Assembly (NCBI GenBank): GCA_964373045.1
Contig: CAYJSI010000004.1
Location: 194-64,193 of the forward strand
From: an uncultured bacterium
GTDB taxonomy: Bacteria > Omnitrophota > Omnitrophia > Omnitrophales > Aquincolibacteriaceae
DNA length: 64,000 bases
Direction of reading: 5' to 3'
This document shows, one piece after another, positions 7,860-41,205 of the stretch; within the stretch, counting starts at the first letter, position 1; each line of letters begins with the position of its first letter. The notes beneath the pieces were generated by a model that saw only the letters and a list, made by a program, of their open reading frames with translations, ran no database searches and was not told the DNA's origin. The translations under genes were made by a program, and so were the position numbers.

Positions 7860-7918
7860 GGGCGCACCCGTGTGTGCGCCCTACGGATAGACGGGCAGAT
7901 ACATGGGTCTGCCCCTAC
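7856..7918. repeat. GTAGGGGC-family palindromic element (full two-hairpin form)
   Basis: GTAGGGGCGCACCCGTGTGTGCGCCCTAC followed by GGATAGACGGGCAGATACATGGGTCTGCCCCTAC. The outer ends are inverted (GTAGGGG/CCCCTAC). Confidence 0.75.
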
Positions 7919-16503: not shown

Positions 16504-16767
16504 ATGACCATTATTGAAGCAACCAAAATGACCTCCAAGGGGCAGGTAACAATCCCGAACCGCGTCAGAAAACTTCTCCGTTTAGAGGAGGGCTCGTCGG
16601 TGGCTTTCACGGTCACAAGGCATGGTATTGTGCTTGTTCCGTGCGAAATCACCGCCCGGTCTCCCTACAGCCCGAACGAGTGGAAAAAGATCGAGAAATT
16701 AGCCGCCGAGGAAGGAAAGGCCTTTTCAAGTCCTGAAGCGGCCAAAAAACATCTTGCGGGGCTATGA
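16504..16767 (+). CDS. AbrB/MazE/SpoVT-family antitoxin
   Basis: SKGQVTIPNRVRKLL is a swapped-hairpin barrel motif. It overlaps the toxin by 4 nt. Confidence 0.75.
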   Translation: MTIIEATKMTSKGQVTIPNRVRKLLRLEEGSSVAFTVTRHGIVLVPCEITARSPYSPNEWKKIEKLAAEEGKAFSSPEAAKKHLAGL

Positions 16768-17042
16768 GATTTGAATTTAAGCCTTCTTTTGATCGTTCTC
16801 TCAAATGCCTACCTCCCGATGAAAAATCCGATGTCAAAGAAGCCGCCCTTGAGCTGATCAACATCCTTTCGAAGGACAGGCAGATTCACCGAGGCCTGGG
16901 GCTTAAGCGTTTAAGGAAAAATTTTTGGGAAGTTCGCCAGGGAATCAAGGTCAGAATCCTTTTCCGGTGGACAGGCGATCTGATTGAATTTGTGCTCGCC
17001 GGCAATCATGATGACGTTAAACGATTCCTCAAAAATGTTTGA
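16764..17042 (+). CDS. RelE/ParE-family toxin
   Basis: 92 aa, basic, partnered with the AbrB-like antitoxin. Confidence 0.65.
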   Translation: MRFEFKPSFDRSLKCLPPDEKSDVKEAALELINILSKDRQIHRGLGLKRLRKNFWEVRQGIKVRILFRWTGDLIEFVLAGNHDDVKRFLKNV

Positions 17043-19275: not shown

Positions 19276-20763
19276 GTGATCCGAAAAACCTCTCCTCAGG
19301 ATATTCAACCCTACCTTACGGATGCCTCTAACTTTCAAGGCGGTCATGCCGAGGGAGTTGCTTTTCCGGAGTCCGAGAAAGAAGTCGTTGAGTTTATAAA
19401 AGAGGCGCATGCACACGGAACCCCTGTAACTATTGCAGGGAATGGAACCGGTTTAACCGGCGCCCGCGTCCCGACAGGGGGCTGGGTGCTTGCCACGGAT
19501 CGCCTTTCAAAAATCAAGCGGATCGAAAAAGACCCGGTGCGAAGATCCTCTTACGCCGTTATCGAGCCGGGATGCCAGCTTAAAACCCTTCAAGACGCGC
19601 TTGGCTCGCTAGCTCTTTTTTATCCTCCGGACCCCACCTCCTTCAAATCTTTTTTGGGAGGCAATGTGGCCACGAACGCCTCGGGTCCGCGCTCCTTTCG
19701 CTATGGGCCGACGCGCGATTTCATTCGAAGATTGCGGATAGTACTGGCGGACGGATCCCTTCTTCATCTTGAGCGCGGAAAAATTTTTGCGAACGCCGTC
19801 GGTGAAATCGAAATCCCGGCCTCAGGTTCCAAAATTAAAATCAAGATCCCGAGTTATGCCATGCCTCCCATTAAACACACGGCGGGTTATTTTGCGAAAC
19901 CTAAGATGGATGCCATCGATCTTTTTATCGGGTCTGAGGGGACGCTGGGTATGGTGACAGAAATCGAAGTCGCCTTAGTGAATCCGCCCCGGGACTATTT
20001 TAGTTATGTCCTTTTTTTCGCAAGCGAGGAAGCTTCTTGGAATTTCGCGGAGGATGCGCGATTCGTGAGCCGCCGGCACCGGGGCGAGCGAAACGATGCC
20101 GCAATCCAAGCCCGCGCCTTGGAATATCTAGATGGCCCTTCTCTTGATTTCATCCGCGCAAAATATCCTACGGTGCCCCGTGAGGCCCGCGCCGCTATTT
20201 ATTTAGAGCAAGAGTGCCAGCCGGAAACGAAAGATTTATTGATCGATCGATGGGGCGCTCTCTTTGAAAAACATAAGGCGCTTGTGGAAGATGTGTGGCT
20301 GGGTGAAAGTGAGGAGGAACATGAAAAATTCAGAGCCTTCCGCCACGAAGTGCCGCTTGAAGTGAAGGCCTTCCTCGCCCAACACGGACAAAGCAAAGTC
20401 GGAACCGATATGGCGGTGCCTGAGAAGGCCTTTAAAGATTTAATGCTCTTTCAAAGAAAGCGACTGAATGACCTTGGGATTCGGAATATCACCTTTGGCC
20501 ACATCGGAGATTGCCATGTTCACCTCAATATTCTCGCGCAAAACGGGGAAGAGCATGCCCGGGCCTGGGGCCTCTACCATGAATTGATTCAAAAGGCCCT
20601 TCAGTTGGGGGGCACCATCGCCGCCGAGCATGGTGTCGGCAAGCTGAAAAAATGTTATCTTGTCGAAATGTTTGGCCAGAAGGGAATCGAAGAGATGGCG
20701 GCTGTCAAAAAAGCGTTTGACCCTAAGATAATCTTGGGGCGGGGGAATATATTGGATATGTAG
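19276..20763 (+). CDS. FAD-linked oxidase (GlcD/D-lactate dehydrogenase family)
   Basis: FAD_binding_4 motif VTIAGNGTGLTG. Confidence 0.8.
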   Translation: MIRKTSPQDIQPYLTDASNFQGGHAEGVAFPESEKEVVEFIKEAHAHGTPVTIAGNGTGLTGARVPTGGWVLATDRLSKIKRIEKDPVRRSSYAVIEPGCQLKTLQDALGSLALFYPPDPTSFKSFLGGNVATNASGPRSFRYGPTRDFIRRLRIVLADGSLLHLERGKIFANAVGEIEIPASGSKIKIKIPSYAMPPIKHTAGYFAKPKMDAIDLFIGSEGTLGMVTEIEVALVNPPRDYFSYVLFFASEEASWNFAEDARFVSRRHRGERNDAAIQARALEYLDGPSLDFIRAKYPTVPREARAAIYLEQECQPETKDLLIDRWGALFEKHKALVEDVWLGESEEEHEKFRAFRHEVPLEVKAFLAQHGQSKVGTDMAVPEKAFKDLMLFQRKRLNDLGIRNITFGHIGDCHVHLNILAQNGEEHARAWGLYHELIQKALQLGGTIAAEHGVGKLKKCYLVEMFGQKGIEEMAAVKKAFDPKIILGRGNILDM

Positions 20764-20822
20764 GGGCCGACCCATGTGTCGGCCCTGTGGTCCACGGGCG
20801 GACACGCGGGTCCGCCCCCTAC
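20760..20822. repeat. GTAGGGGC-family palindromic element
   Basis: GTAGGGGCCGACCCATGTGTCGGCCC ... GGGCGGACACGCGGGTCCGCCCCCTAC. Confidence 0.75.
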
Positions 20823-20860
20823 TTGCCAAAACTGTACTCTTTCGGTTATTATAACGTTCA

Positions 20861-21871
20861 ATGATTATCGGACTTACGGGAAAAAATGGGTCGGGGAAAG
20901 GGGAGGTTGCCAAGTACCTCCAGGAGCGAGGGTTCCGCTATTATTCCCTCTCGGATGTGCTTCGCGACGAAGCGAACAGGGAGGGGAAGGGCGTCACGCG
21001 TGATGTCTTAGTCGAGCTCGGCAATCGCCTTCGTGGGGAGCAGGGTCCCGGAGTCCTTGCCGAAAAGATCTTTGCCCGCCTGGATCCCGAAAAGTACTAC
21101 GTGGTTGATTCCATCCGCCACCCCTCCGAAGTCCAGGTCTTTCGCCGGCGAAGTGATTTTATCCTTGCCACGGTTCGAGCCCCCGAGAAGCTCCGCTTTG
21201 AGCGTTTGCGCCAGCGCGCCCGTGAAAATGATCCGAAGAGCTTCGATGATTTTAAGCAGCTTGAACAGAAAGAGGCAAAGAGCCAGCAATCAAGCGATCA
21301 GCAGCTCGACCAGGCCATTTCCATGGCCGATGTGGTGCTTGACAATACAAGCTCTCTTAAGATGCTTCACGATAAGGTGCGCGAGGTCTTACTTGAGTTT
21401 TCCAAAAAGCAGACGCGCCCTGATTGGGACGATTATTTCCTCGGCATTGCAAAAGTGGTGGCGCTTCGCTCGAATTGCATTAAGCGTAAGGTGGCGGCTG
21501 TGATCGTCAAAGATAAGCGCATTATTGCGACCGGTTACAACGGCACACCGCGCGGAGTTAAAAATTGCAGCGAAGGCGGATGTCCGCGCTGCAACCATAT
21601 CGATCCCTCGGGAAAAGGGTTGGATGAATGCGTCTGTTCGCACGCCGAGGAAAACGCCATTGTGCAGTCGGCCTACCACGGCGTCTCCATTAAAGATTCT
21701 GTGATTTATACAACTTTTTCTCCATGCCTGATGTGCACGAAGATGATCATTAACGCCGGCATCCGTGAAGTGGTTTACAATATCGATTACCCTTTAAGCG
21801 CTGTTTCGATCCAGCTTTTGAAAGAGGCCGGAATCACGGCGAAAAAATTGAGCCTCGGCGCCGCGGCTTAA
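20861..21871 (+). CDS. fusion protein: N-terminal P-loop nucleotide kinase domain plus C-terminal dCMP/cytidine deaminase domain
   Basis: Walker A motif GLTGKNGSGKG. Deaminase zinc motifs HAEENAI and PCLMCTKMI. Confidence 0.8.
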   Translation: MIIGLTGKNGSGKGEVAKYLQERGFRYYSLSDVLRDEANREGKGVTRDVLVELGNRLRGEQGPGVLAEKIFARLDPEKYYVVDSIRHPSEVQVFRRRSDFILATVRAPEKLRFERLRQRARENDPKSFDDFKQLEQKEAKSQQSSDQQLDQAISMADVVLDNTSSLKMLHDKVREVLLEFSKKQTRPDWDDYFLGIAKVVALRSNCIKRKVAAVIVKDKRIIATGYNGTPRGVKNCSEGGCPRCNHIDPSGKGLDECVCSHAEENAIVQSAYHGVSIKDSVIYTTFSPCLMCTKMIINAGIREVVYNIDYPLSAVSIQLLKEAGITAKKLSLGAAA

Positions 21872-21884
21872 AGGTCAAAATCTC

Positions 21885-23126
21885 ATGAGCCAAAAGTCCC
21901 CCATCATTCGAAAAAGCTTTGGCCTTAAAGAAGAGATCCGTCCGCAGCTCAAAGCCAGCTATCACAGCAACTTAATCGATCAGATTAAAACGAACGGATT
22001 TCAAATGAAATCCGGCCGCTTGACGCTCAAGCTCGCTGAGGAGTTTGGTTTTTGCTACGGAGTCGACCGGGCCATCGACTATGCCTATGAGACCCGTGCC
22101 CAATTTCCGGGCAAGCGAATTTTTATCACCAATGAAATCATCCACAATCCCCGCGTGAACGCCAAGCTTCAGGAAATGGGGATCCAGTTTCTCTCGGGCC
22201 CCTACGCTTGCGGGATTACCGCGGACGACATCCGCGAGGATGACGTCGTGATTTTCCCCGCCTTTGGAACCACGCTAAAAGAGCTCGATCAGCTTCAAAA
22301 ACGAGGCTGCGTGCTTGTGGACACGACCTGTGGCTCGGTGATGAGTGTGTGGAAGCGGGTCGAGTCTTACAGCCGTGATGCCTTTACCTCCGTCATTCAC
22401 GGCAAGTATGATCACGAAGAGACCATGGCCACAAGCTCTCGGGCCACCCAGTATCCCGGCGGTAAATATCTTATTGTGCGTGACAAAGTCCAGGCACAAA
22501 CCGTTTGTGATTATATTGAGGACCGGGGTGAGCGCGAAGCCTTCTTAAAGGAATTTGCCTCGAGTCTATCCGCCGGTTTTGATCCTGATCAGGATCTTGC
22601 GCATCTCGGCTGCGCGAATCAAACGACCATGCTTTCGAGCGAATCCTTGGAGATTGCCAGTATGCTTCAGGAATCCATGCGCAAGCGTTTTGGCGCCGAG
22701 GAGCTCCCCAAGCGATTCCGTCATTTTGATACGATTTGTTCGGCGACTCAGGAGCGCCAGGACGCTGTTTTTAAGCTCGTTCGCGCCGGTGTGGACCTCA
22801 TGATTGTGGTGGGCGGTTACAATTCGAGCAATACGGGGCACCTGGTGGAAATATCCCTCGATTTTTGTCCCGCCTTTCACGTGAAGGATGCCGAGTGCAT
22901 TATTTCGAGGAATCTCATTCAGCACAAAAAAGTTTTCAGCTCGGAGATTATCGAAACTGCAAACTGGCTTCCCGCGGGAGAGATGAGAATCGGTGTGACA
23001 GCCGGGGCCTCGACTCCGAATCGTGTGATTGAAGAAGTGATCGAACGAATCATTGCCGTAGGGGCCGACCCGCGTGTCGGCCCGTCAATCACAGGGCGGA
23101 CACATGGGTCCGCCCCTACGTTATGA
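21885..23126 (+). CDS. ispH: 4-hydroxy-3-methylbut-2-enyl diphosphate reductase IspH (long form); C-terminus runs into a palindromic repeat
   Basis: Conserved Cys residues are present, along with HNPRVN, the long insert, and TAGASTP near the end. The last ~22 aa are encoded by repeat 23058-23119. Confidence 0.85.
   Translation: MSQKSPIIRKSFGLKEEIRPQLKASYHSNLIDQIKTNGFQMKSGRLTLKLAEEFGFCYGVDRAIDYAYETRAQFPGKRIFITNEIIHNPRVNAKLQEMGIQFLSGPYACGITADDIREDDVVIFPAFGTTLKELDQLQKRGCVLVDTTCGSVMSVWKRVESYSRDAFTSVIHGKYDHEETMATSSRATQYPGGKYLIVRDKVQAQTVCDYIEDRGEREAFLKEFASSLSAGFDPDQDLAHLGCANQTTMLSSESLEIASMLQESMRKRFGAEELPKRFRHFDTICSATQERQDAVFKLVRAGVDLMIVVGGYNSSNTGHLVEISLDFCPAFHVKDAECIISRNLIQHKKVFSSEIIETANWLPAGEMRIGVTAGASTPNRVIEEVIERIIAVGADPRVGPSITGRTHGSAPTL
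23058..23119. repeat. GTAGGGGC-family palindromic element (forms the 3' end of the ispH ORF)
   Basis: GTAGGGGCCGACCCGCGTGTCGGCCC ... GGGCGGACACATGGGTCCGCCCCTAC. Confidence 0.75.
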
Positions 23127-23269: not shown

Positions 23270-23524
23270 ATGCCCCAAAACGTAACCCTCTACACAACCC
23301 GAACCTGCCCCCATTGCCGCCGCGCCAAACGGCTCCTCCAGTCCAAAAAGGCGGCTTTTCAGGAAATTGACCTGACGGACGATTCTGGAAAAAGGGAAAA
23401 GCTTGAAAAGCAAACCGGCTGGATGACCGTCCCCGTGATTTTTATCGGGGAGGAATTTATCGGGGGGGCGGATGATCTTTTTAAGCTTGAAGAGTCGGGA
23501 AAACTCGACGCAAAACTTGCTTGA
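23270..23524 (+). CDS. grxC: glutaredoxin
   Basis: CPHC active site, TVPVIFIG and GGxDD. Confidence 0.88.
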   Translation: MPQNVTLYTTRTCPHCRRAKRLLQSKKAAFQEIDLTDDSGKREKLEKQTGWMTVPVIFIGEEFIGGADDLFKLEESGKLDAKLA

Positions 23525-23528
23525 AAAG

Positions 23529-24752
23529 CTAAGGGTGCCTGGCACCTTTGGCTTTGGCGCCAGGCGCCTTTTGACTTAATAGCAGCACGATCGATCCCGC
23601 GGCTGCAGGAAAAACGAGTACCCGAAGGGCCGTAGGAAATCCCGCCTGATCGGCTACCACTGAAAAGATAAGGCTTCCCACCACGGAAACTTTGGTCGTA
23701 AGCCCGTAAAGCCCGAAGTATTCCCCCAGCCGGTCCGGCTCAACTAATTCGACGAGTGCTTTTCTTCCTGCCGTCCAAATGCCGGCAATGGCAAACGCCC
23801 CTGCGCTCAAGGTGATGGCCACAAATCCAGCGAAACTCGAAACCAAGGAAAGAGAGCCCAGCGTTAGGACCAAGAGAAATCCCGACAGAGTCAAAGTTTT
23901 TATCGCGCCCCACCGATCGGTGATCACGCCTGCGAGAAGACCGGCAAGAAAGGCAGCCGCATTTAAGGCGATCAGAAAACCGATCAAGAGATTCTGACCA
24001 GGGTGAAAAACCTCCCGCGCATAAACGGAGATCCAAAAAATAGCGCTATTTAAAGCGTCCACCACGAAAAAATTCCCCCCCAGAAAAAGAAGCAGCCTCG
24101 GCCGTTCGGAAAGTGAATAAATTGTTTTTGTTAATTTCTTCCATTCCCCTCGCCATGAAATTCGCTCAGGCACCCGCGGTCTGGAAAGAGGTCGTTCCGG
24201 CACCCAAAAAAAGAGGGGAAGGGAAAAAATAAAAAAAAGCAGGGCTCCCCCCAGAAAAACTTGCGATCTTCCAAAGGTCTGATCAACGGTATGGGCAATG
24301 GGAAGCGCGAAGACAACCCCAAGATAGCCGAGTCCTGTCCCCAGCCCCGAGGCGAATCCCTGCTTTTCGGGAGGCGCAACGACCACGAGAAGTGAATTAT
24401 AAAACACAAGCGAGGCGTGGTAGAAAAAACACGCCACAATAAAAATCATGATCAAAATTAAAGGCATGCGTGAAGCGGAGAGGAGGGCCATAAAACCGAT
24501 GCAAATAAGAGTGGATCGCAGGAGGTATTTTTTTGTTTTCCCGGTTTGATCGCTCAAGGCGCCGAAAAAGGGTATGGCAAGCCCCGCCAGGATCATGGCC
24601 GAGGTCGTGGCCGCACCCAGATACCAGTTGGCCCCTGTGAGCTCGGTTAAGTAAAGGGGGAAGTAGGCCGTTAGCACGACGGCAGAAAAAATGGTATTGG
24701 CAAAATCGTAAAGGGCCCAACTGGTGAGGGATAAGCGGGTGGGAGTTGTCAC
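23529..24752 (-). CDS. MFS transporter
   Basis: A 12-TM hydropathy profile is inferred from the sequence. Confidence 0.75.
   Translation of the reverse strand: MTTPTRLSLTSWALYDFANTIFSAVVLTAYFPLYLTELTGANWYLGAATTSAMILAGLAIPFFGALSDQTGKTKKYLLRSTLICIGFMALLSASRMPLILIMIFIVACFFYHASLVFYNSLLVVVAPPEKQGFASGLGTGLGYLGVVFALPIAHTVDQTFGRSQVFLGGALLFFIFSLPLFFWVPERPLSRPRVPERISWRGEWKKLTKTIYSLSERPRLLLFLGGNFFVVDALNSAIFWISVYAREVFHPGQNLLIGFLIALNAAAFLAGLLAGVITDRWGAIKTLTLSGFLLVLTLGSLSLVSSFAGFVAITLSAGAFAIAGIWTAGRKALVELVEPDRLGEYFGLYGLTTKVSVVGSLIFSVVADQAGFPTALRVLVFPAAAGSIVLLLSQKAPGAKAKGARHP
23533..23568. repeat. GGTGCCWGGCACC-family palindromes between convergent grx and the MFS gene (bidirectional terminator-like)
   Basis: GGGTGCCTGGCACC ... 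GGCGCCAGGCGCC. Confidence 0.7.
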
Positions 24753-24901: not shown

Positions 24902-25336
24902 GTGATGAATACGAATCCCAAAAAATTATATGCGAATCTGTGCGAAAAAGAAAAGGGTTTCACTTTGGTCGAAACGCTCGTCACGATTCTTGTGGTGGCG
25001 ACCGCGCTTCTGTCTTCGCTCATTGCGAGCACGGCGATTCAGAGAACGGCAGAAAGTATTCATGACCGCGCCGTGGCCATTCAAGATGCCAATCAAGTCG
25101 TGGAGCAAATGAGAAACACGGCCTTGACGGGAACATTTCCGGGTAATGTGACGGCGGCGTTTCCGGATGGGGCAGAGGTGGCCGGGTTTGACGATCTGAC
25201 CTATGAGGTGGTGACGGTTGATTTTGTGGACTCGAATGCCAATCCACTCGATGTGACAGTCACTGTTGCGTGGACCGACAACACGAATCGGGCCGTCACG
25301 CAGACACTCAGAACTCTCGTGACTCAAAGGACCTAA
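24902..25336 (+). CDS. type IV pilin-like minor pilin / pseudopilin (prepilin N-methylation motif)
   Basis: KGFTLVETLVTILVVA: G|FTLVE cleavage site with Glu+5. Confidence 0.8.
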   Translation: MMNTNPKKLYANLCEKEKGFTLVETLVTILVVATALLSSLIASTAIQRTAESIHDRAVAIQDANQVVEQMRNTALTGTFPGNVTAAFPDGAEVAGFDDLTYEVVTVDFVDSNANPLDVTVTVAWTDNTNRAVTQTLRTLVTQRT

Positions 25337-25337
25337 C

Positions 25338-25940
25338 ATGCAAAGAAACGAGCAAGGGTTTACCCTTCTTGAAGTGGTGGTGGCCGTGGCCATATCGTCT
25401 GTGATCTCTTACGCCCTTTTTCTTGCGCTTCGCATGGGGGATGAACAGATCCGAACCACGGACCTGAAAATGACGATTCAGGATTCCATGCGCGAGGGTC
25501 TTTACAAAATGATTCAGGAGATCCGCCAGTCGGCGCCCGGCAAAGTGAATATTGATTCCTCCGGCAACAGCATCTCCTTTTCTATACCGGACCCGAACAA
25601 TGCAGTCGGAGACGATTACAGCGCGAACTGGGACGATGCCATCCAAGTCTCTTATGCCTTAGGAGGAGACGACGGCAATCAAATCATGCGAACGGTGTCC
25701 AATGACGTAACCACGAAGGTGATGGCCAATGATGTGACGGGCGTAACGTTCGCGGGCAATGCCGGCAATCCGACGCTCGTGACCCTTACCATGAATGTTC
25801 AGCGGACGCTAACCAACGGGCGGCTTGTTCCGAGTACGCCCCTGCAGATGACGGGGCAGGCCGAGGTTCGAAATGTCTCCAATGTTGACGATTGCACTGA
25901 TGATGACAACGATAACGTTTGTGACGAGAATGAAACCTAA
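25338..25940 (+). CDS. type IV minor pilin (PilW/PilV-like)
   Basis: QGFTLLEVVVAVAISS is a class III signal. Confidence 0.8.
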   Translation: MQRNEQGFTLLEVVVAVAISSVISYALFLALRMGDEQIRTTDLKMTIQDSMREGLYKMIQEIRQSAPGKVNIDSSGNSISFSIPDPNNAVGDDYSANWDDAIQVSYALGGDDGNQIMRTVSNDVTTKVMANDVTGVTFAGNAGNPTLVTLTMNVQRTLTNGRLVPSTPLQMTGQAEVRNVSNVDDCTDDDNDNVCDENET

Positions 25941-25953
25941 GGGGGAGAAAAGA

Positions 25954-27156
25954 ATGATTCCATCAAAAGAGATGAAAGGTGTTTTAGGGAACCGGAAAGG
26001 ATTCATTTTACTTACGAGCTATCTCTTAATTTCGATGCTCTCCATTTTTTCTCTCGGGCTTTTTGCCAGGAGCGCGGCCTTTATTCAATCGGTCGAGCGA
26101 AATAAAAATAAGATCATCGCCTTCCAAAAAGCCGAGGCGGGGCTCGATCAAGCGATCGTAGAACTCACAGACGACCAAAACTATTCAGGGATGGCTTACA
26201 TCCCGCTGGGAGACGAGGGAGGCTACAGCGTTACGGTTTGTCCGCCGACCTGCGGGGGTGATCTCACCGAGCCGACGGATGCCAATGTACGTATGATTCA
26301 AACCACGGGTTTTGCTCCTGACAATGACCCAACCTCCACGGCCTATAGCAGCCGTTCCGTGATTTCTCATGTCAATGTAGCAGGCTCCTCGGGTTTCGAT
26401 TTTGCTATCTTTGCCGGAGATGATATCTCCATGAGCGGGAACGCAGTGGTTGATAGTTACAACTCTGACGAGGGTGCTTACAATGCAGCCACGGCGTACG
26501 ATAACGGAAATATCGGAACGGATAGCACAACGGCTGATACTGTGTCGTTATCAGGGAATGTCGCAGTGAATGGGGATGTGACCGTGGGCCCGAATGGAAA
26601 CCCCAGCAGCGTTGTCACGACCACTGGCAATGCTGTCATCTCCGGAACGGGGTCATCCGCGACCCAAGCTAAAAACTACCAGCTGATCGGAAGCAGCGAT
26701 ACCTCCCTTGGCGCCCTTAGTTTAAGCGGGAATACGAATTATGTCTTGCCCACAGGAAGCTACCGCTACAGCTCCTTAAAAATTAGCGGAAACGCTAAAC
26801 TGACGACCACCGGGGCGGTCAAGATTTATGTGGATGGCACCATCAGCATTTCGGGAAATGGTGTTTCTACGGCCAGCAACAAGCCGTCTAATTTCCTGCT
26901 CTATTCCACGGCCGGTGCGAGTGTCAGCTTATCAGGCAACGGAAATTTTTATGGGGCTGTTTACGCGCCCGAGTCTGATGTGAGCATCTCCGGAAACGGG
27001 CAGACTTACGGTGCGGTGGTTTCCGAAACCTATTCGCAAACCGGAAACGGTAAAGTCCATTTTGATGAATCTTTGAACGATTTAGAAGGCGCCACAGACA
27101 GCAATAGCACGCCCAATCTGCTTGCCTGGCGGGAGACGAATACGGCGGCTGCTTAG
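25954..27156 (+). CDS. PilX-like minor pilin with a Gly/Asn/Ser-rich beta-solenoid-like C-terminal domain (paralog A)
   Basis: PilX_N-like signature KGFILLTSYLL ... RNKNKIIAFQKAEAGLDQAI. The repeats are SGNxxxxGAVYAP. RBS GGGGGAG. Confidence 0.7.
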   Translation: MIPSKEMKGVLGNRKGFILLTSYLLISMLSIFSLGLFARSAAFIQSVERNKNKIIAFQKAEAGLDQAIVELTDDQNYSGMAYIPLGDEGGYSVTVCPPTCGGDLTEPTDANVRMIQTTGFAPDNDPTSTAYSSRSVISHVNVAGSSGFDFAIFAGDDISMSGNAVVDSYNSDEGAYNAATAYDNGNIGTDSTTADTVSLSGNVAVNGDVTVGPNGNPSSVVTTTGNAVISGTGSSATQAKNYQLIGSSDTSLGALSLSGNTNYVLPTGSYRYSSLKISGNAKLTTTGAVKIYVDGTISISGNGVSTASNKPSNFLLYSTAGASVSLSGNGNFYGAVYAPESDVSISGNGQTYGAVVSETYSQTGNGKVHFDESLNDLEGATDSNSTPNLLAWRETNTAAA

Positions 27157-27174
27157 GGGGAGCGGGAGGGTGAA

Positions 27175-28374
27175 GTGATGAACGACATGACAGGAAAAAA
27201 GATAACCCGCGCGGGCCAGAAGGGATTTATCCTGCTCACAAGTTATCTTTTAATCTCCATGATTTCCATTTTTTCTCTCGGGCTTTTTGCCAGGAGCGCG
27301 GCCTTTATTCAATCGGTCGAGCGAAATAAAAATAAGATCATCGCCTTCCAAAAAGCCGAGGCGGGGCTCGATCAAGCGATCGTAGAACTCACAGACGACC
27401 AAAACTATTCAGGGATGGCTTACATCCCGCTGGGAGACGAGGGAGGCTACAGCGTTACGGTTTGTCCGCCGACCTGCGGGGGTGATCTCACCGAGCCGAC
27501 GGATGCCAATGTACGTATGATTCAAACCACGGGTTTTGCTCCTGACAATGACCCAACCTCCACGGCCTATAGCAGCCGTTCCGTGATTTCTCATGTGAAT
27601 ATCGCCGGTTCTTCGGGTTTTGACTTTGCTGTTTTTGCCGGAGACAGCGTTACCTTGAACGGGACCACCTCTATCGATAGTTACAATTCCAACGACGGGC
27701 CTTACGGCGCAAACACGGCCTCAGCGAATGGCGATGTTGGAACGGATAGCGTGACCACTTCCACCGTGAGCTTGAACGGAAGTTCGACCATCAATGGCGA
27801 TGTGACGGTGGGCCCCAGCGGCAATCCAACGGATGTCATCTCCGCTTCGAGCCAATCGCTCATTACGGGCTCTCAAACGTCGGCATCCACCGAAAAAAAT
27901 TATCAGGTGATGACAAGCAGCAGCACTTCGCTTGGATCCCTTTCGGTTTCAGGGAGCACGAAGCTTACTTTGGCGGCCGGAACCTACCGCTACAGCTCGC
28001 TTAAGATTACGGGAAACGCTAAAATAACAACAACGGGTGCGGTCAAAATTTATGTCGACGGCACGGTGAATATCGGCGGAGGAGGCATTGTGAATGCGAC
28101 CGCGACACCAAGCAACCTGCTTGTTTACGCAACGACGAGCGCCAGCGTCAGCGTTTCCGGGAACAGCGATTTTTACGGGGCCGTTTACGCCCCCGCCTCG
28201 GCCGTAAGCGTTTCCGGGGCCTCTGATTTCTACGGGGCCGTGGTGGCAGACTCCTTTACTCAAAGCGGTGAATTCCATTACGATGAGGCCTTAAACGATT
28301 TAGAAGGCGCCACAGACAGCAATAGCACGCCCAATCTGCTTGCCTGGCGGGAGACGAATACCTCGGCCGCGTAA
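27175..28374 (+). CDS. PilX-like minor pilin (paralog B)
   Basis: Same architecture as paralog A. 332 nt at the 5' end and 68 nt at the 3' end are identical to paralog A. Confidence 0.7.
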   Translation: MMNDMTGKKITRAGQKGFILLTSYLLISMISIFSLGLFARSAAFIQSVERNKNKIIAFQKAEAGLDQAIVELTDDQNYSGMAYIPLGDEGGYSVTVCPPTCGGDLTEPTDANVRMIQTTGFAPDNDPTSTAYSSRSVISHVNIAGSSGFDFAVFAGDSVTLNGTTSIDSYNSNDGPYGANTASANGDVGTDSVTTSTVSLNGSSTINGDVTVGPSGNPTDVISASSQSLITGSQTSASTEKNYQVMTSSSTSLGSLSVSGSTKLTLAAGTYRYSSLKITGNAKITTTGAVKIYVDGTVNIGGGGIVNATATPSNLLVYATTSASVSVSGNSDFYGAVYAPASAVSVSGASDFYGAVVADSFTQSGEFHYDEALNDLEGATDSNSTPNLLAWRETNTSAA

Positions 28375-41131: not shown

Positions 41132-41205
41132 GCGCCCGTAGCTCAATTGGATAGAGCGTCACCCTCCGAAGGTGAAGGTTACGTGTTCAACTCACGTCGG
41201 GCGCA
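41132..41205 (+). tRNA. tRNA-Arg (anticodon CCG)
   Basis: Cloverleaf read by hand: acceptor GCGCCCG/CGGGCGC, D-arm GCTC/GAGC, anticodon stem TCACC/GGTGA with loop CTCCGAA, T-arm ACGTG/CACGT with TTCAACT, discriminator A. CCA is not encoded. Confidence 0.85.

Follow-up and report, generated by a model that had tools for sequence, protein, structure and literature searches.

Does a polypeptide that joins a P-loop kinase-like domain to a zinc deoxycytidine monophosphate (dCMP) deaminase act in anti-phage defence, or does it serve ordinary nucleotide metabolism? The question is raised by a gene at positions 20861-21871 of a 64,000-nucleotide stretch of DNA from an uncultured Omnitrophota bacterium (contig CAYJSI010000004.1), referred to here as the window. 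The original prediction for this fusion gene pointed to the architecture reported for anti-phage deoxycytidine triphosphate (dCTP) deaminases, and allowed that the product could equally be a housekeeping dCMP deaminase with a salvage kinase domain. The second of these readings is the one favoured by synteny, by co-divergence with the neighbouring IspH protein and by family scores. With a probability of about 0.75, we consider the fusion gene to be a vertically inherited Omnitrophota housekeeping gene, encoding a two-domain enzyme of pyrimidine deoxynucleotide metabolism and not an anti-phage effector. The defence reading is not supported, because the gene is a syntenic core gene without defence context and its product falls short of the defence family in model score, in size and in sequence hallmarks.

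The fusion gene is a complete open reading frame (ORF) with an ATG start that encodes 336 amino acids (aa), a P-loop nucleoside monophosphate (NMP)-kinase-like domain followed by a dCMP deaminase domain. The gene with its domains and motifs, the promoter match, ispH and the glutaredoxin gene described below all lie on the forward strand. The start codon is right, since the N-terminus MIIGLTG is common to more than 100 homologues. The window protein shares 69-84% identity with more than 100 clusters of proteins about 334 aa long, which belong to Omnitrophota wherever they are named, and across this phylum the fusion gene is 67-84% identical. The names given to relatives in databases are inconsistent (‘dephospho-CoA kinase’, ‘deaminase’, ‘AAA family ATPase’, ‘dCMP deaminase’). 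The two-domain architecture itself is real, as Pfam domains, matches of an AlphaFold2 (AF2) model found with Foldseek and a sequence search of the PDB together establish. The model, built with 33 homologues, has a mean predicted local distance difference test (pLDDT) score of 79.7 and is poorly modelled only at a Cys-rich loop (aa 239-258). A scan of ten longer relatives (407-699 aa) for additional domains, for instance ThyA, Dut or Tmk, yielded nothing informative. Throughout, family relationships were judged by pairwise identities, hidden Markov model (HMM) scores and motif counts.

The C-terminal half is the more readily classified of the two. The complete zinc deaminase that had been read from its motifs is borne out: residues 186-336 (21416-21868) form a DCTD/ComEB-type zinc dCMP deaminase domain, with an intact catalytic site and allosteric motif. 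Pfam dCMP_cyt_deam_1 matches aa 188-306 at 88 bits (cutoff 25), and the Streptococcus mutans dCMP deaminase 2HVV is matched by sequence at E 8.5e-26. The top Foldseek matches of the domain are 2HVV, 2HVW, 5C2O, 1VQ2, 4P9C/E, 2W4L and 7FH4 (E 4e-14 to 1e-9), with target-normalised template modelling (TM) scores of 0.66-0.89 against solved dCMP deaminases. The catalytic HAE motif (21641-21649), within HAEENAI at aa 261-267, supplies the zinc ligand H261 and the proton shuttle E263, the latter invariant in the 33-sequence alignment. The zinc-binding PCxxC motif, here PCLMC (21722-21736; aa 288-292), lies within PCLMCTKMI at aa 288-296, and its residues P288, C289 and C292 are at least 90% conserved. 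The sequence GYNG (21533-21544; aa 225-228) corresponds to the G(Y/W)N(A/G) motif that has been defined as the allosteric site of DCTD enzymes (PMC12088426). All 120 close relatives have GYNG, and the allosteric motif occurs in 47 of the 74 distant representatives that keep the catalytic motifs. The domain is 37-46% identical to stand-alone ComEB/dCMP deaminases (E 1e-23 to 5e-29), compared with 22-28% to the deaminase domains of defence proteins. The ComEB equivalog model TIGR02571 gives 120.6 bits (cutoff 219), which marks the domain as DCTD-type but not as a ComEB equivalog. Some distant short-form members of the alignment have lost HAE and/or PCxxC while keeping the Walker A motif, and are possibly pseudo-deaminase derivatives.

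The N-terminal half, a kinase-like domain of aa 1 to about 180 (20861-21400), has a nucleotide-kinase fold with a Walker A motif, as had been predicted. Pfam AAA_18 (39.7 bits) and AAA_17 (37.4 bits) both match above cutoff over aa 1-130, and the Walker A sequence GLTGKNGSGKG occupies aa 4-14 (20870-20902). The closest protein of solved structure is SSO1041 of Sulfolobus solfataricus, a UPF0200 protein (3H0K, 3LW7), which aligns by sequence at E 4.5e-17 over aa 2-175 against 2-171. Foldseek likewise matches the domain to 3LW7, an adenylate-kinase-related structure with bound adenosine monophosphate (AMP), at a TM score of 0.81. The domain also carries the segments LSxSDxLR (aa 28-35) and DSIR (aa 83-86), which we take to be like the motifs with which adenylate and UMP-CMP kinases bind the NMP phosphate. 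A literature search on UPF0200, SSO1041 and PRK08356 returned nothing relevant.

The fold does not by itself name a substrate. No known kinase specificity can be assigned, because CoaE, PRK08356 and every specific kinase equivalog model tested score under their cutoffs; PRK08356 itself gives 73.3 bits (cutoff 189), and models of (d)CMP kinase, UMP-CMP kinase and adenylate kinase are matched only weakly, below threshold. The domain had been described as dephospho-CoA-kinase-like or dNMP-kinase-like, and of this description the NMP-kinase fold holds while the link to CoaE does not. That the protein is a dephospho-CoA kinase fused to a deaminase would agree with the name given to relatives in several NCBI records, with a Pfam CoaE (PF01121) score of 26.6 bits over aa 1-90 and with CoaE structures among the weaker fold matches (TM 0.58-0.63). 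However, that score lies below the cutoff of 27 and covers only profile positions 1-90 of 180, TIGR00152 gives 26 bits against 65.6 and PRK03333 28.7 bits against 215, SSO1041/3LW7 is a far better match by both sequence and fold, and biochemistry offers no reason why CoA synthesis and dCMP deamination should be paired. The CoaE annotation was rejected on the Pfam and NCBIfam scores, and we regard it as close to untenable.

Whether the N-domain is a catalyst at all deserves more weight. The protein could be a housekeeping dCMP deaminase whose N-domain is a non-catalytic, nucleotide-sensing or oligomerisation module that tunes the deaminase. The sub-threshold scores of CoaE, PRK08356 and all the specific kinase equivalogs are consistent with such a role, as is the absence of GxxxxGK from 11 of 78 (about 14%) distant short-form representatives. 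The anti-phage enzymes, moreover, have no Walker A lysine and still need their N-domain for deamination, which points to a part in binding or regulation. What stands against this is a conservation pattern typical of a catalytic kinase: all 120 close relatives have GxxGxGK, neither G12 nor K13 varies in the 33-sequence alignment, which reaches down to 33% identity, and conservation extends to the D83/R86 motif and to R112 and R115, the arginines of the lid (the conserved arginines of the domain being R35, R58, R86, R112 and R115). The closest solved structure, 3LW7, also binds AMP in its NMP site. We therefore judge a purely non-catalytic N-domain to be unlikely.

We propose that the two domains act on a common nucleotide. 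The deaminase would convert dCMP to dUMP for thymidylate synthesis, and the kinase-like domain, given the likeness of LSxSDxLR and DSIR to NMP-binding motifs, is proposed to phosphorylate a pyrimidine (d)NMP, most plausibly dCMP in view of its fusion partner. A single polypeptide would thus stand at the dCMP branch point, with one route leading to dCDP and dCTP and the other to dUMP and deoxythymidine triphosphate (dTTP), and the split between these exits would be set by dCTP/dTTP feedback.

The comparison with the defence family is where the housekeeping and defence readings part. According to the latter, the window protein would be an AvcD/DcdV-type anti-phage dCTP deaminase that has become fixed in a core genome, silent until infection and then depleting dCTP and dCMP so that the phage is starved. 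The domain order is indeed the same, and the homology is significant: annotated anti-phage dCTP deaminases, retrieved from plasmids with tblastn, are 23-26% identical to the window protein across 85-93% of its length, and a Vibrio anti-phage dCTP deaminase aligns with it full-length. These parts of the original prediction stand, and the step from architecture to defence gene does not. A signature of the N-domain, DSI[RK]HPxEV (DSIRHPxEV in the window protein), is common to both families, and it argues for shared ancestry of the fusion in the short family and the AvcD-type enzymes rather than for convergence. The V. cholerae defence gene, furthermore, occurs in 69% of genomes, so that high prevalence is by itself no disproof of a defensive role.

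The scores nevertheless separate the two families. The NCBIfam model for anti-phage dCTP deaminases, NF041025, gives the window protein 153.6 bits (E 8e-45) in two separate stretches, against a cutoff of 400, and three other members of the short family score 150-162 bits, while positive controls from Vibrio, E. coli and Rhizobium plasmids reach 504, 498 and 427 bits end-to-end. With the PADLOC dCTPase model the window protein scores 209 bits (E 3e-62); the short family as a whole spans 111-244 bits and true members 527-601. In the HMM comparison with the defence family and ComEB that had been suggested as a check, neither NF041025 nor the ComEB model reached its cutoff.

Size and layout point the same way. 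Tal et al. set a family criterion of more than 350 aa and studied a protein of 576 aa (10.1101/2021.04.26.441389), and AvcD/DcdV has 532 aa (10.1101/2021.03.31.437871). The 120 defence-family proteins that we compared have a median length of 526 aa (range 398-621), all but two being at least 486 aa long, compared with the 336 aa of the window protein. The spacing from GxNx to HAE is 36 residues in the short family and a median of 82 (78-123) in the defence family (120 proteins each), and the tail from PCxxC to the C-terminus is 48 residues in the former and 123 in the latter. The deaminase insertion and C-terminal extension to which these differences amount are a family hallmark observed in the present comparison and not a published definition.

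The nucleotide-binding motifs differ as well. The Walker A sequence GxxGxGK occurs in 0 of the 120 defence proteins, which instead have GAVGT[DE]-type loops without the lysine, and a search for G....GK[ST] anywhere before the deaminase in the same 120 proteins also found none. At the position of GYNG, 109 of 118 defence proteins have GAND. The lack of the Walker A lysine, and GAND in place of GYNG, make it improbable that this ‘kinase’ domain works as a conventional kinase in the defence enzymes.

A further difference lies directly upstream. The defence gene is accompanied by a cis-encoded small RNA antitoxin, AvcI/DifV, of 174 nt directly 5' of it (10.1101/2021.03.31.437871). The spacer 5' of the fusion gene measures 97 nt and is occupied by a hairpin of the repetitive extragenic palindromic (REP) type, so that an RNA of this size would not fit; among syntenic relatives the spacer is unconserved and mostly 18-102 nt long, a few reaching about 200 nt. 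Rfam gave no match near the fusion gene. As judged by space and conservation, an AvcI/DifV-like 174-nt RNA is not part of the locus. The window protein is therefore homologous to the AvcD family but is not a member of it, since it differs from that family on every feature tested except the domain order.

The genomic setting of the gene bears on the same question. The anti-phage family is marked by a sparse, horizontally transferred distribution and by proximity to defence genes, for which Tal et al. used a defence score above 0.33 (10.1101/2021.04.26.441389). Gene order in the window runs HtpX, ferredoxin, AsnC-type regulator, glyoxalase-like protein, flavin adenine dinucleotide (FAD)-linked oxidase, fusion gene, IspH, glutaredoxin. 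The same block, in which the AsnC and FAD-oxidase genes may be missing, was seen in four independent relatives on long contigs, in another metagenome contig and in 11 of the 12 GTDB species that are nearest by the fusion gene; the contig of the twelfth stops just 3' of the gene. The neighbours had been described as unrelated metabolic genes, and they are metabolic and unrelated in function, but their arrangement is conserved across relatives. Over the window's first 50 kb, all scanned ORFs are housekeeping genes, for example those for PolX, QueG, DeoC, phosphoglycerate mutase, ThiF, Era, AddAB, QueA, Tgt, SecDF, RecJ, glycogen synthase and ThiG, and PADLOC found no match among ten flanking proteins except weak generic GTPase matches for Era.

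The closest link is with ispH (lytB; 21885-23126; Pfam LYTB 240 bits), which starts 13 nt 3' of the fusion gene. It lies directly 3' of the fusion gene in 18 of the related loci, at a distance that in most relatives ranges from an overlap to about 41 nt. The third gene of the conserved block encodes the glutaredoxin (23270-23524) and is followed by a terminator-like hairpin (23556-23568), and no terminator-like site was seen between the fusion gene and ispH in the window. The fusion gene is probably co-transcribed with ispH and the glutaredoxin gene. Across 15 relatives, the fusion protein's identity to the window copy rises and falls with that of IspH (Pearson r = 0.93), with means of 72.3% for the fusion protein and 67.4% for IspH. 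The fusion gene has thus diverged together with an essential neighbour and has been at least as constrained. A metagenome search with IspH returned only three loci, one of which has the glyoxalase-like, fusion and IspH genes in order and one of which (52% IspH identity) is without the fusion gene.

What was found here, a fusion conserved in the core genome, at the same locus in relatives and outside any defence context, is what the original prediction had named as refuting its defence idea. Together with the model scores, the length below 350 aa, the short spacing and tail, the departure from the defence family in Walker A and GYNG, the co-divergence with IspH and the cramped 5' spacers, it leaves a core-fixed anti-phage dCTP deaminase very unlikely. 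The housekeeping assignment is preferred instead, and inheritance is vertical within lineages.

Beyond Omnitrophota the family is widespread. An HMMER search of 1.84 billion representatives returned 684 clusters at E <1e-30, many of them full-length (320-350 aa) and 35-55% identical, and relatives of about 335 aa were found in at least 598 GTDB species. The GTDB scan of species genomes was run with an alignment of the closer relatives, and taxonomy was taken from the best 80 of these at least 598 species. The best 80 matches (54-80% identity) comprise Omnitrophota, Acidobacteriota (Terriglobia, Bryobacterales), Myxococcota, other ‘Deltaproteobacteria’, Elusimicrobiota, Armatimonadota, Gemmatimonadota and the DPANN archaea Micrarchaeota and Iainarchaeota. 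Homologues having a P-loop kinase together with a deoxycytidylate deaminase domain outside Proteobacteria, a few of them in archaea, were already noted in the DcdV preprint (10.1101/2021.03.31.437871). The linkage to ispH is lost beyond the ispH-linked Omnitrophota clade, and neighbourhoods there are lineage-conserved and housekeeping in character: acetyl-CoA synthetase, acyl-CoA dehydrogenase, an HD protein, NamZ, CYTH, ProC and glycogen synthase in Acidobacteriota, and in Micrarchaeota aIF5B and a cluster that is PCNA-like by eye only. Viral contigs yielded stand-alone deaminase domains and one partial kinase match but no full-length short fusion, and in the viral and plasmid collections no short-form fusion was found on a mobile defence locus, a further point against the defence reading. 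Literature searches on kinase-dCMP deaminase fusions in Omnitrophota and on dCTPdeaminase calls in these phyla returned nothing relevant, and no description of a short, canonical-kinase, core-genome form was found.

Several observations weigh against the housekeeping assignment, or against parts of it. First, the homology to the defence models is real, as the PADLOC match makes plain. Second, DPANN copies (six loci, for example) share 54-60% identity with the Omnitrophota protein, a closeness equal to that of copies from other bacterial phyla, which implies some horizontal, inter-domain transfer in the deep history of the family. Third, the assignment of a pyrimidine (d)NMP as the putative kinase substrate draws on motifs and on the fusion partner. 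Finally, both defence enzymes that have been studied require the N-domain for activity, so that a mechanism shared with the short family is possible.

Such a shared mechanism would open a middle course. As the presumed sister or progenitor of AvcD-type effectors, with a predicted dCTP/dTTP-sensing site still in place, the short family might moonlight, acting as a dCMP branch-point enzyme in growth and turning to runaway deamination of deoxycytidine nucleotides when infection perturbs the pools. This idea strikes us as far-fetched; if true, it would mean a core-encoded, antitoxin-RNA-free form of nucleotide-depletion defence in small-genome Omnitrophota and DPANN archaea. More simply, the defence family might have been recruited from the short family as its housekeeping ancestor, a possibility that we put forward tentatively and hold to be short of probable.

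For annotation, the locus removes a false lead, since a defence gene cannot be recognised by architecture alone, even when the PADLOC dCTPase model is hit at E ~1e-62. With the short family present in at least 598 species and scoring 111-244 bits, defence censuses of uncultivated lineages that rely on E-values could over-count ‘dCTP deaminase’ systems. The defence and short families can be told apart simply, by the length of the protein, by whether the Walker A lysine is there, by GYNG as opposed to GAND and by the distance from GxNx to HAE. The findings also point to a widespread putative bifunctional enzyme of deoxynucleoside triphosphate (dNTP) metabolism and to a plausible housekeeping origin of a nucleotide-depletion immune effector.

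The flanks of the fusion gene account for the remaining features of the locus. The gene had been taken for a single-gene unit bounded by palindromic elements, and this picture is contradicted on three counts: the second copy of the element lies inside ispH, only 13 nt separate the fusion gene from ispH, and the element is dispersed. The first copy is a 59-nt double hairpin (20760-20818) in the spacer 3' of the FAD-oxidase gene, and the second (23058-23116) falls within the 3' end of the ispH ORF; both were located by a repeat search and carry no assigned strand. The hairpin is of a GC-rich type, GGGCGGAC-N5-GGTCCGCCC, sometimes doubled to 59 nt, and recurs as a single hairpin near 7860, 11816, 41682 and 50735, with 11 matches against 0.02 expected by chance. 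These dispersed copies identify it as a REP-like repeat and not a cassette boundary. The palindrome-bounded cassette was accordingly rejected, the element bracketing the fusion gene together with ispH. Read in frame, the element gives a peptide of the type ‘GADPRVGP...GRTHGSAPT’. The ispH ORF of the window is about 34 aa longer than those of relatives, with identity ending at about aa 379 of 413, and the REP-like insertion encodes this extra IspH tail and appears to have replaced the native stop region.

Between the first element and the fusion gene lies a match to a sigma-70-like promoter (20823-20852; TTGCCA, an 18 nt spacer and TATTAT), a consensus match only, at 10 of 12 positions. The -10 hexamer ends 8 nt from the ATG of the fusion gene and no Shine-Dalgarno sequence is visible, which suggests that a leaderless mRNA may be made for the fusion-ispH-glutaredoxin unit. 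A second Omnitrophota clade (three loci; 61-63% identity) has a polyprenyl synthetase gene, not ispH, 3' of the fusion gene. That isoprenoid-pathway genes stand 3' of the fusion in two clades may be coincidence, or may reflect a link to the use of cytidine nucleotides in the methylerythritol phosphate (MEP) pathway.

Other features of the window were recorded alongside. In relatives, other genes (SDR, PTPS, glutamate synthase) occupy the position between the glutaredoxin gene and addB. In the window, positions 24902-28374 hold a type IV pilin-like gene cluster, one member of which has an N-terminal methylation motif, and two paralogues of about 400 aa with DUF7305 and pAdhesive_15 (ice-binding-like adhesin) domains. 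Just 5' of htpX, a 92-aa ORF (16764-17042) is RelE/ParE-type toxin-like by eye and is absent from the syntenic blocks of relatives; it had no Pfam or PADLOC match at E <1e-3. The sole Rfam match at the gathering threshold in the 64-kb window is a tRNA (41132-41205) just 5' of queA and tgt.

Set beside known systems, the window protein combines parts that are otherwise found apart. Its N-domain resembles the UPF0200 protein SSO1041 in aligning with it end-to-end, in superposing with it at TM 0.81 and in having the same type of Walker A motif. The UPF0200 SSO1041 proteins, however, are stand-alone and of unassigned function, whereas the kinase-like domain of the window protein is fused to a deaminase. 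Its C-domain resembles the DCTD/ComEB enzymes (S. mutans 2HVV/2HVW, T4 Cd 1VQ2, S-TIM5 4P9C, human DCTD 2W4L, PBCV-1 bi-DCD 7FH4) in fold, in the HAE, PCxxC and G(Y/W)N(A/G) motifs and in a similar domain length. These known enzymes are stand-alone proteins of 140-190 aa, whereas the window protein bears a 180-aa N-terminal kinase-like domain and, unlike them, has a Cys-rich loop before HAE (C236, C241, C244, C257, C259) that is modelled with low confidence. Enzymes of the DCTD/ComEB type are characterised by a hexameric state, by activation through dCTP and inhibition through dTTP, and by a preference for dCMP as substrate over dCTP.

Phage T4 offers a precedent for the proposed pairing of activities, a dCMP deaminase and a deoxynucleoside monophosphate kinase working in one pathway. 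Among the dNTP-synthesising enzymes of this phage, the dCMP deaminase Cd and the dNMP kinase gp1 are separate proteins held in a complex, whereas the window protein is one polypeptide, and the likeness is offered as an analogy of pathway.

The nearest relatives in architecture are the AvcD (DcdV) enzymes, which also place a P-loop-fold domain before an HAE/PCxxC zinc deaminase in one polypeptide, with both domains homologous to those of the window protein at 23-28% identity. The defence proteins carry an insertion of at least about 45 residues between GxNx and HAE, a C-terminal extension of about 75 residues and an N-terminal extension too, whereas the window protein is without the insertion and the C-terminal extension. 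We hypothesize that the two groups share an ancestry from which the defence enzymes later departed, losing the kinase lysine and the allosteric motif and gaining their insertions. The defence family today is sparse and island-borne, whereas the window gene is core and syntenic.

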